Shown in pieces: positions 7,878-13,031 of a stretch of DNA of 64,000 bases (position 1 is the stretch's first letter; the number at the start of each line of letters is the position of its first letter). The notes under the pieces are model-generated. The model saw only the letters and a list, made by a program, of their open reading frames with translations, had not been told where the DNA came from and searched no databases. This DNA comes from Escherichia coli (GTDB lineage Bacteria; Pseudomonadota; Gammaproteobacteria; Enterobacterales; Enterobacteriaceae). The translations under genes and the position numbers were made by a program. The stretch is from assembly GCF_003334785.1 (NCBI RefSeq), contig NZ_QOWV01000011.1, one strand, 5' to 3'.

Positions 7878-9239
<1,362 letters not shown>

Positions 9240-9378: not shown

Positions 9379-10518
9379 ATGAGCGCGGGAAGCCCAAAAT
9401 TCACCGTTCGCCGCATTGCGGCTTTGTCACTGGTTTCGCTATGGCTGGCAGGCTGTTCTGACACTTCAAATCCACCGGCACCGGTCAGCTCCGTTAATGG
9501 CAATGCGCCTGCAAATACTAATTCTGGTATGTTGATTACGCCGCCGCCGAAAATGGGGACGACGTCTACAGCGCAGCAACCGCAAATTCAGCCGGTACAG
9601 CAGCCACAAATTCAGGCTACTCAACAACCGCAAATCCAGCCAGTGCAGCCAGTAGCTCAGCAGCCGGTACAGATGGAAAACGGACGCATCGTCTATAACC
9701 GTCAGTATGGGAACATTCCGAAAGGCAGTTATAGCGGCAGTACCTATACCGTGAAAAAAGGCGACACACTTTTCTATATCGCCTGGATTACTGGCAACGA
9801 TTTCCGTGACCTTGCTCAGCGCAACAATATTCAGGCACCATACGCGCTGAACGTTGGTCAGACCTTGCAGGTGGGTAATGCTTCCGGTACGCCAATCACT
9901 GGCGGAAATGCCATTACCCAGGCCGACGCAGCAGAGCAAGGAGTTGTGATCAAGCCTGCACAAAATTCCACCGTTGCTGTTGCGTCGCAACCGACAATTA
10001 CGTATTCTGAATCTTCGGGTGAACAGAGTGCTAACAAAATGTTGCCGAACAACAAGCCAGCTGCGACCACGGTCACAGCGCCTGTAACGGTACCAACAGC
10101 AAGCACAACCGAGCCAACTGTCAGCAGTACATCAACCAGTACGCCTATCTCCACCTGGCGCTGGCCGACTGAGGGCAAAGTGATCGAAACCTTTGGCGCT
10201 TCTGAGGGGGGCAACAAGGGGATTGATATCGCAGGCAGCAAAGGACAGGCAATTATCGCGACCGCAGATGGCCGCGTTGTTTATGCTGGTAACGCGCTGC
10301 GCGGCTACGGTAATCTGATTATCATCAAACATAATGATGATTACCTGAGTGCCTACGCCCATAACGACACAATGCTGGTCCGGGAACAACAAGAAGTGAA
10401 GGCGGGGCAAAAAATAGCAACCATGGGTAGCACCGGAACCAGTTCAACACGCTTGCATTTTGAAATTCGTTACAAGGGGAAATCCGTAAACCCGCTGCGT
10501 TATTTGCCGCAGCGATAA
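9379..10518 (+). CDS. nlpD: Lipoprotein NlpD (LysM plus degenerate M23 peptidase domain), 379 aa
   Basis: Lipobox LWLAGCS; Q/P-rich repeat [25 protein letters not shown]; M23-like C-terminal region. Confidence 0.95.
9980..10008 (+). promoter_or_regulatory. Candidate major rpoS promoter inside nlpD (-35 TTGCGT, 17-bp spacer, -10 TATTCT)
   Basis: Hexamers read directly; predicted start is about 566 nt upstream of the rpoS ATG, matching the long rpoS 5' UTR as I recall it. Confidence 0.55.
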
Positions 10519-10580: not shown

Positions 10581-11573
10581 ATGAGTCAGAATACGCTGAA
10601 AGTTCATGATTTAAATGAAGATGCGGAATTTGATGAGAACGGAGTTGAGGTTTTTGACGAAAAGGCCTTAGTAGAAGAGGAACCCAGTGATAACGATTTG
10701 GCCGAAGAGGAACTGTTATCGCAGGGAGCCACACAGCGTGTGTTGGACGCGACTCAGCTTTACCTTGGTGAGATTGGTTATTCACCACTGTTAACGGCCG
10801 AAGAAGAAGTTTATTTTGCGCGTCGCGCACTGCGTGGAGATGTCGCCTCTCGCCGCCGGATGATCGAGAGTAACTTGCGTCTGGTGGTAAAAATTGCCCG
10901 CCGTTATGGCAATCGTGGTCTGGCGTTGCTGGACCTTATCGAAGAGGGCAACCTGGGGCTGATCCGCGCGGTAGAGAAGTTTGACCCGGAACGTGGTTTC
11001 CGCTTCTCAACATACGCAACCTGGTGGATTCGCCAGACGATTGAACGGGCGATTATGAACCAAACCCGTACTATTCGTTTGCCGATTCACATCGTAAAGG
11101 AGCTGAACGTTTACCTGCGAACCGCACGTGAGTTGTCCCATAAGCTGGACCATGAACCAAGTGCGGAAGAGATCGCAGAGCAACTGGATAAGCCAGTTGA
11201 TGACGTCAGCCGTATGCTTCGTCTTAACGAGCGCATTACCTCGGTAGACACCCCGCTGGGTGGTGATTCCGAAAAAGCGTTGCTGGACATCCTGGCCGAT
11301 GAAAAAGAGAACGGTCCGGAAGATACCACGCAAGATGACGATATGAAGCAGAGCATCGTCAAATGGCTGTTCGAGCTGAACGCCAAACAGCGTGAAGTGC
11401 TGGCACGTCGATTCGGTTTGCTGGGGTACGAAGCGGCAACACTGGAAGATGTAGGTCGTGAAATTGGCCTCACCCGTGAACGTGTTCGCCAGATTCAGGT
11501 TGAAGGCCTGCGCCGTTTGCGTGAAATCCTGCAAACGCAGGGGCTGAATATCGAAGCGCTGTTCCGCGAGTAA
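10581..11573 (+). CDS. rpoS: RNA polymerase sigma factor sigma-S (sigma-38), 330 aa, intact
   Basis: Start set at the ATG giving [21 protein letters not shown]... (ORF track starts 36 nt upstream); sigma-70 family regions 2-4; codon 33 is GAG (Glu), no internal stop. Confidence 0.95.
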
Positions 11574-11666: not shown

Positions 11667-13031
11667 TCAAATTACCGCCCATACGCACCAGGTAATTAAG
11701 AATCCGGTAAAACCGAGAATGGTCGTTAACACTGTCCAGGTTTTCAGACCGTCTGCTACCGATAACCCCAGATATTTGGTCACAATCCAGAACCCTGAGT
11801 CATTAATATGTGACGCACCAAGCCCACCAAAGCAGGCTGCCAGCGTCACCAATACGCACTGAATCGGATTCAATCCCATCACCGCTTCTGAGAGTAACCC
11901 GCCGGTTGTCAGTATTGCTACGGTTGCTGACCCCTGCGATGCACGCAGCGCCAGTGAAATAATAAATGCGGCTGGTAACAGAGGCAGGTCAATCATTTGT
12001 AGCATGTTGGCAAGGGCTTTGCCGACGCCCGATTCCACCAGCACTTTGCCAAATACCCCTCCAGCACCAGTAACCAAAATCACTACCGCCGCAGTAGGAA
12101 GCGCTGAGCCCATAATGTCGCTGGTGTGTTGTAAGCTCCAGCCGCGACGTAAAGCCAATAACCAGAATGCCAGCACCAGCGCAATCATTAGAGCTACCAT
12201 TGGTGAGCCGATCAGCTGTAGCGTACCAAGCAGGGGATGCGAAGGCGGCATCAGTGTTGCGGAAACCGTACCCGCCATGATAATCGCGATAGGAATAACA
12301 ATTAGCGAGGTGACCAGCGCGACGCCCGGTGGATTTATTTTATCGCTTAATTTTGTCGCGCCTTCCTCACTGGCCGGAGCCAGTTGCATCTGTTCCAGTA
12401 CTTCTACTGACATCGCATATTGGCGCTTATTGATTATTTTCGCTGCAAAGTAGCCAACAACCCCTACGGGAATAGAAATCGCAATACCGATGATGGTTAG
12501 CCAGCCGATGTCTGCGTGGAGTAACCCCGCTGCGGCGACAGGGCCTGGATGCGGCGGTACCGCCACGTGAACAGTGAGCATGATCCCAGCGACAGGCAGG
12601 CCAAATTTGAGTGGCGATATTTTGGCAACCTTGGCAAAACCGTAAATGATTGGCGCAAGAATAATAAAGCCGACATCAAAGAAGACGGGAATACCGAGGA
12701 AGAACGCTGCCAGAGTCAGCGCAGCGATAGTTCGTTTGTCACCTAACTTGCGACTGAAATAATTAGCCAGTGACTCTGCACCACCAGAGTGTTCGATCAT
12801 ACGCCCCAGCATAGCGCCCAGACCAATAATAATAGTGACGGAACCAAGCACACCGCCCATCCCGGCGATCATCACTTTACCCACTTCGCCCGCCGGTATA
12901 CCCGCCGCAAGTGCGACTAACAGGCTGACGAGGAGCAGAGCAACGAATGGTTGTACCTTTGCCTTGATGACCAGCAGCAACAGCATGATTACGCCAGTTA
13001 ACGCAATGCATAACAATGTAATTGTGGACAT
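11667..13031 (-). CDS. ygbN: GntP-family (gluconate-type) permease, probable acid-sugar transporter, 454 aa
   Basis: Multi-TM GntP-like sequence; first gene of the convergent ygbNMLKJ block. Confidence 0.9.
   Translation of the reverse strand: MSTITLLCIALTGVIMLLLLVIKAKVQPFVALLLVSLLVALAAGIPAGEVGKVMIAGMGGVLGSVTIIIGLGAMLGRMIEHSGGAESLANYFSRKLGDKRTIAALTLAAFFLGIPVFFDVGFIILAPIIYGFAKVAKISPLKFGLPVAGIMLTVHVAVPPHPGPVAAAGLLHADIGWLTIIGIAISIPVGVVGYFAAKIINKRQYAMSVEVLEQMQLAPASEEGATKLSDKINPPGVALVTSLIVIPIAIIMAGTVSATLMPPSHPLLGTLQLIGSPMVALMIALVLAFWLLALRRGWSLQHTSDIMGSALPTAAVVILVTGAGGVFGKVLVESGVGKALANMLQMIDLPLLPAAFIISLALRASQGSATVAILTTGGLLSEAVMGLNPIQCVLVTLAACFGGLGASHINDSGFWIVTKYLGLSVADGLKTWTVLTTILGFTGFLITWCVWAVI

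Follow-up and report, generated by a model that had tools for sequence, protein, structure and literature searches.

The NlpD repeat has been known since 1994, when an 'unusual amino acid repeat' in this protein was described by Ichikawa, Li, Fu and Clarke (J Bacteriol 1994; PMC205248, cited in PMC2736372). The repeat that we analyze here lies in the same gene, occupies the same position between pcm and rpoS and forms the same Q/P-rich N-terminal repeat; the feature itself shows no difference from it. Changes in the length of the region have also been described outside E. coli. In Salmonella Typhimurium UK-1, nlpD carries a 12-bp in-frame deletion outside the rpoS promoter, which was reported as a strain-specific variant (PMC3391293). 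This deletion resembles the alleles described below, given that it is an in-frame nlpD indel and that the deleted sequence (reverse complement CGCCGCAACAAG) falls in a P/Q-rich segment, but it differs from them in its step of 12 bp and in that Salmonella does not carry a clean 8-residue tandem array. Yersinia NlpD was described as being devoid of the P/Q-rich repeat region (PMC2736372).

On the protein side, the closest comparison is with the disordered linkers of the outer-membrane lipoproteins RcsF, Pal and NlpD studied by El Rayes et al., where length and disorder outweighed sequence and NlpD was one of the three proteins tested (bioRxiv 10.1101/2021.01.05.425367). As in these linkers, the linker that holds the repeat comes directly after the lipidated Cys and is of low complexity; unlike them, the repeat peptide is more conserved than a pure spacer needs to be. 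A further proline-rich spacer that spans the periplasm is the (Glu-Pro)n/(Lys-Pro)n region of TonB. The NlpD segment may be likened to it as a Pro-rich, repetitive and extended stretch that leads from a membrane anchor across the periplasm to a functional domain, although the protein, the membrane and the repeat chemistry are different and the analogy would concern the role only. The NlpD repeat was reportedly also described by Lange and Hengge-Aronis in 1994. The repeat is an ordinary and long-known feature, and it is only the census of its length alleles, of which we found no earlier report in the literature searched, that constitutes a small and descriptive addition.

Structure of the NlpD repeat

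The repeat was identified in a 64,000-nucleotide stretch of E. coli DNA (hereafter, the window; features are listed in Table 1). The nlpD reading frame is preceded by pcm (8613-9239) and followed by rpoS (ATG 10581), and it is annotated as 'murein hydrolase activator NlpD' in RefSeq E. coli genomes whose DNA is identical to the window. The neighboring reading frames follow the order surE-pcm-nlpD-rpoS, with pcm and nlpD being annotated in the matching RefSeq records, and the SurE, PCMT and sigma-70 Pfam families were detected at the corresponding locus of a divergent Escherichia (L009, see below). The encoded protein shows the NlpD architecture, namely a LysM domain followed by a Peptidase_M23 domain, and starts with a lipoprotein signal peptide in which LWLAGC follows the basic n-region KFTVRR. 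By the established lipobox rule, Cys26 is the lipidated residue. The original prediction, which had assigned the repeat to the Q/P-rich linker of NlpD, is therefore borne out by the reading frame, the domains, the lipobox and the pcm/rpoS neighbors.

With regard to the start codon, RefSeq/PGAP places it at TTG 9424 (9424-9426), resulting in a protein of 364 aa, instead of at ATG 9379 (9379-9381), which yields 379 aa. The TTG-started form would have only ten residues in front of the lipidated Cys and would not contain KFTVRR. Because it would thereby be deprived of a normal lipoprotein n-region, ATG 9379 appears to be the more plausible start.

Table 1. Coordinates of the features in and around the nlpD repeat (positions in the window).
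Feature	Position	Strand	Description
nlpD coding sequence	9379..10518	+	379 aa from ATG 9379; ORF list, Pfam, RefSeq annotation of identical DNA
Lipobox L-A-G-C	9445..9456	+	Residues 23-26, lipidated residue Cys26; from the translation
Repeat unit 1	9574..9597	+	CAGCAACCGCAAATTCAGCCGGTA, QQPQIQPV
Repeat unit 2	9598..9621	+	CAGCAGCCACAAATTCAGGCTACT, QQPQIQAT; 17/24 identical to unit 1
Repeat unit 3	9622..9645	+	CAACAACCGCAAATCCAGCCAGTG, QQPQIQPV; 20/24 identical to unit 1
Degenerate tail, 27 bp	9646..9672	+	QPVAQQPVQ; final 12-mer is an exact copy of the 12-mer closing unit 1
11-bp exact repeat CAACCGCAAAT	9577..9587 (copy 9625-9635, 48 bp away)	+	Crossover of the common -48 allele and of the +48 allele
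12-bp exact repeat CAGCCGGTACAG	9589..9600 (copy 9661-9672, 72 bp away)	+	Crossover of the -72 and +72 alleles
Two tandem copies of 9-bp CAGCCAGTR (QPV QPV)	9637..9654	+	Site of the +9 and -9 alleles
LysM domain	9745..9873	+	Residues 123-165; Pfam PF01476, E = 4.2e-12; first folded domain after the linker
Peptidase_M23 (degenerate LytM) domain	10213..10494	+	Residues 279-372; Pfam PF01551, E = 4.6e-33
Inferred transcription start of the main rpoS promoter within nlpD	10014	+	rpoS ATG 10581 minus 567 nt

The repeat (9574-9672) is in frame on the plus strand and encodes NlpD residues 66-98, of which 48% are Q and 21% are P. These residues belong to the N-terminal linker, with Cys26 before them and the LysM domain after them. 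The motif quoted in the prediction, CAGCAACCGCAAATTCAGCCGGTACAG, begins precisely at 9574, which corresponds to codon 66 of the 379-aa reading frame. While about four imperfect units of 24-27 bp had been proposed, and the units are indeed imperfect and arranged in tandem, the array consists of three clear 24-bp units plus a degenerate 27-bp remnant. Pairwise, the units are identical at 17/24, 20/24 and 15/24 positions, with units 1 and 3 being most alike and adjacent units matching at 15-17/24, and the tail compared in register with the units gives 9-14 matches per 24 positions. Tandem Repeats Finder (TRF) reported positions 9577-9641 with a period of 24, 2.7 copies, 70% matches and a score of 67, and a separate repeat search returned three copies spaced 24 bp apart, the later two of which were 71% and 86% identical to the first, together with copies of the CAGCCGGTACAG family at 9589, 9637 and 9661. 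The remaining long exact repeats of the array are CAAATTCAG (9 bp, 24 bp apart) and CAGCCAGT (8 bp, 9 bp apart).

The repeat exceeds what is expected by chance, also beyond its Q/P-rich composition. None of 500 whole-gene codon shuffles reached the observed tandem score, and neither did the vast majority of shuffles that kept the local composition (26/2,000 reached it when the 33 local codons were shuffled and 10/20,000 when the 33-residue peptide was shuffled). Compared with the variable-number tandem repeats (VNTRs) used for typing, the array shares the head-to-tail copies (three at 24-bp spacing) and a copy number that differs between strains, the latter at low frequency and without any one-unit step, but it does not share their high inter-unit identity (15-20/24; 70% according to TRF).

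Length alleles among E. coli and related genomes

We searched 5,426 complete E. coli genomes with junction probes, that is, 80-mers representing all in-frame deletions and duplications that could arise between exact repeats with a minimum length of 4-5 bp and a spacing of 9-110 bp. These probes were set apart by 100-nt random spacers, used with an E-value cut-off that reference-length alleles fail, and validated on known alleles; indels of 3-6 bp inside the repeat lie outside this count. Length variants were found in 75 of the 5,426 genomes (1.4%), while 98.6% keep the reference length. The most frequent variant was the -48 bp allele, which leaves one unit, occurs in at least four SNP backgrounds and was present in about 61 genomes, including many O157:H7 genomes (EC4115, TW14359, SS17, SS52 and JEONG-1266). 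Without the -48 probes, 13 variant genomes were left, namely seven with the -9 bp allele (one QPV fewer), four with the +9 bp allele (one QPV more, in two backgrounds) and two with the -72 bp allele, and a single genome carried the +48 bp allele with five units. The -48 count is the difference between the 75 variant genomes and those with other junctions (13) or with +48 (1). It agrees with alignment coverage, for which 5,357 of 5,420 records reached 80%, the 63 below equalling the sum of the 61 genomes with -48 and the two with -72. Ranking the hits by identity undercounts this allele (2 versus ~61), as alleles with large indels align as two pieces of high identity. Among the 5,426 complete genomes, the junction probes revealed no change of ±24, 12, 15, 27, 36 or 60 bp and no +72 junction. 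Each variant changes the length by a multiple of 3 bp, and its nlpD is annotated as intact.

We also considered whether 21 records with 90-95% identity were hidden indels: 11 of them were the ±9 alleles and the rest were mainly SNP-rich alleles of native length, with 9 and 10 SNPs in the two that were checked.

Other assemblies added further alleles. The -48 allele was also seen in proteins of Shigella dysenteriae, S. flexneri and S. boydii, and -57, +72 and -72 alleles were found as well, the last on 38 contigs. In a divergent Escherichia, whose nlpD is ~93% identical outside of the repeat, seven units result from an exact duplication of a 72-bp three-unit block. The proposal that linker length may vary between strains thus holds to the extent that, with 75 of 5,426 complete genomes carrying in-frame length variants and more alleles present in Shigella and in draft assemblies, the repeat number is not invariant; however, the locus is not hypervariable, given that one length prevails in 98.6% of the genomes and that no change by a single 24-bp unit was found.

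Two further polymorphisms were observed in the same linker. Just upstream of the repeat, the CCGCCGCCG run (PPP; 9541-9549) is 3 bp shorter (PP) in at least two genomes, A30 and G47-1, and represents a second small in-frame length polymorphism. Moreover, the last two codons of unit 2 (9615-9621) encode AT in the window, whereas SA is encoded by a minority of alleles within E. coli (E200086, EC42405), by an E. fergusonii-like orthologue and by the seven-unit Escherichia. SA could be the ancestral state; alternatively, recombination may have brought in these alleles.

Larger changes at the locus were also noted. This part of nlpD had no match in five or six of the 5,426 complete genomes, and the locus therefore seems to be deleted or disrupted in a few strains. 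In some assemblies, the N-terminal ~80-85% of NlpD was fused to sigma-70 region 4 (NlpD-RpoS) or to UbiD-like domains (P0091, P0044 and P0094), and deletions or rearrangements across nlpD-rpoS are therefore likely in those strains.

Breakpoints of the length changes

The step sizes observed in complete genomes (9, 48 and 72 bp) lie between the best-matching short exact repeats of the array. According to the allele sequences, the -48 change in loci L015-L018 and the +48 change in locus L005 crossed over within the 11-mer, and the 12-mer breakpoint of the ±72 alleles was evident from the alignment of L002 and from L011. Most of the breakpoints fall within the longest exact repeats (8-12 bp). Not every event occurred at the longest repeat, as the -48 allele of PEC145 breaks a few bases further 3', outside of the 11-mer. 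The pattern is that expected from misalignment at short homologies and hence points to slippage as the probable mechanism. The missing one-unit steps fit with units 1 and 3, and not adjacent units, being the most similar pair.

Conservation of the repeat peptide

Unit 1 and unit 3 specify identical octapeptides and differ by four synonymous and no non-synonymous codon changes. Likewise, the E. fergusonii-like orthologue (P0008 locus) has the same three-unit layout, with 18 of the 33 codons differing from the window, 14 of them synonymously. Selection appears to act on the repeat peptide and not on the DNA, because units 1 and 3 differ at four synonymous sites only. That the peptide is strongly conserved within Escherichia despite these synonymous changes fits poorly with a segment for which any flexible spacer would do, and hints at a sequence-specific role.

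Across genera, the protein is 80-90% identical except in the stretch from PPPKMG to MENGR, where its length varies most: Citrobacter freundii has ~15 residues here and the seven-unit Escherichia has ~66. In this comparison, only Escherichia showed the clean 8-residue array.

Position relative to the rpoS promoter

Transcription from the main rpoS promoter begins 567 nt ahead of the rpoS start codon (PMC10948607), which places this promoter start 342 bp past the repeat and within nlpD, in agreement with the prediction that this promoter would be found a few hundred bp downstream in the same gene. The position derived here (Table 1) relies on the published distance, because a consensus promoter scan flagged no sigma-70-like site in the region, the known rpoS promoter being likewise unflagged. 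An Rfam search of the region gave no match.

One database protein of 340 aa (P0032) does not contain residues 204-242 of the second linker, corresponding to a 117-bp deletion at window positions 9988-10104 that is flanked by two GCAnCnACCGA-like short repeats. This strain may have lost its main rpoS promoter, because the deletion removes the stretch that holds position 10014.

The rpoS gene of the window itself carries Glu33 (VEEEPSD) at codon 33 (10677-10679), a position at which K-12 laboratory strains have Gln or an amber codon. Over 299 bp, the window was 100% identical to strain 504239 and 99.7% identical to W3110, which marks it as E. coli DNA from outside K-12. The gene that follows rpoS is a GntP-like permease in the window (11667-13031), and in the seven-unit Escherichia it is a MarR-family regulator encoded on the other strand (L009:3891-4218); the stretch downstream of rpoS is a known variable region.

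Linker function and alternative explanations

Both linkers of NlpD were predicted to be disordered by DISOPRED (PMC5533458). Deleting linker residues 29-64, a deletion that ends one residue before the repeat (66-98), caused ~60% of NlpD to remain in the inner membrane and impaired complementation (bioRxiv 10.1101/2021.01.05.425367), and E. coli NlpD is known from the literature to activate the amidase AmiC (PMC5533458; bioRxiv 10.1101/2021.01.05.425367). Solved structures of the NlpD relatives DipM and EnvC comprise the Peptidase_M23 part only. An AlphaFold2 model built from a 20-sequence alignment had a mean pLDDT of 34.7, with even the Peptidase_M23 domain remaining below 50, and at this poor overall quality the model carries no information on disorder.

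The explanation that we favor, with a probability of roughly 0.8, is that an old, diverged in-frame triplication plus remnant serves as a flexible spacer under selection at the peptide level, in which occasional misalignment gives rise to tolerated length variants. The repeat would have originated as a tandem triplication of a 24-bp unit and would now read (QQPQIQxx)3-QPVAQQPVQ. It would form part of an unstructured tether that runs from Cys26, which is held in the outer membrane by its lipid, to LysM, the domain that binds peptidoglycan, and this flexible spacer would most likely enable the LysM and degenerate LytM domains to reach the cell wall and AmiC. In addition, the repeat would contribute to the N-terminal disorder on which efficient sorting of outer-membrane lipoproteins by the Lol system depends. 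Synonymous drift probably lowered the DNA identity between units to 63-83%, and with the unit DNA having drifted while the peptide was conserved, the array should be fairly stable. Where the longest exact repeats that are left (7-12 bp, at distances of 9, 48 or 72 bp) occasionally misalign as the DNA is replicated or recombined, this would generate in-frame deletions and duplications, which we infer to be nearly neutral and which could thus be tolerated and persist in lineages.

Alternatively, the length alleles could be adaptive, with linker length acting as a molecular ruler for the reach of NlpD from the outer membrane and the short one-unit allele of the O157:H7 sublineage and of Shigella altering cell separation, envelope behavior or sorting. 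The recurrence of -48 in at least four SNP backgrounds, in many O157:H7 genomes and in proteins of the three Shigella species would be in line with this idea, as would the conservation of the repeat peptide against synonymous drift. Linker length has also been found to matter for RcsF (bioRxiv 10.1101/2021.01.05.425367) and reportedly matters for Pal (PMC12826056). Nevertheless, we consider adaptive length unlikely: one length is shared by 98.6% of the genomes, the natural range within Escherichia extends from 9 to ~60 repeat residues, C. freundii manages with a very short stretch and Yersinia without the repeat region, and the association with lineages may reflect plain inheritance by descent. 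A more far-reaching version, which is less probable still, would have the repeat act as a natural length dial, whereby the allele with one unit (-16 aa) would have arisen several times and been retained in the O157:H7 sublineage (EC4115, TW14359, SS17) and in Shigella through altered NlpD sorting or AmiC activation, and hence envelope behavior, and whereby QQPQIQPV would bind a specific partner instead of being a passive spacer.

It is highly improbable that the length variants are assembly or sequencing artifacts in a repetitive stretch. Although short-read assemblies can collapse repeats, and some of the variant proteins come from draft or metagenome assemblies, the array spans only 99 bp with units that are 63-83% identical and is therefore easily spanned by reads. 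Moreover, identical alleles are seen in many complete genomes that different laboratories obtained independently (-48 in EC4115, TW14359, SS17 and SS52; -9 in seven genomes), and all variants are in frame.

Even less credence can be given to a DNA-level element with an incidental coding capacity, such as spaced protein-binding sites that affect the transcription of nlpD or rpoS. The repeat does lie inside the nlpD-rpoS operon and upstream of the rpoS promoter start. Yet the variation between units and between species is synonymous and keeps the amino acids, whereas a DNA motif would be expected to show the reverse; a peptide that is conserved while its DNA drifts therefore argues against a function at the DNA level, and we rejected this reading based on the synonymous-site pattern. 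Furthermore, the region yielded neither a promoter-like site nor an Rfam family, and deletions of 48-72 bp persist in healthy lineages. Lastly, we dismissed a phase-variable contingency locus that turns NlpD on and off, as might be suspected for a tandem repeat within the gene of a surface-associated protein, because the unit is 24 bp long, all changes are multiples of 3 bp that leave the coding sequence intact, and no sequenced length variant of the repeat shifts the frame.

With the peptide-selected spacer as the preferred explanation, the practical value of the finding is small: a coding tandem repeat near the rpoS promoter would be a stable, peptide-constrained linker and not a switch. The -48 bp allele could serve as a simple lineage marker within O157:H7 and Shigella. 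Beyond that, the natural allele series, with one, three, five or seven units and with one QPV more or fewer, could be used to examine how tether length affects sorting and amidase activation, a question about outer-membrane lipoproteins that is currently being asked for Pal and RcsF.
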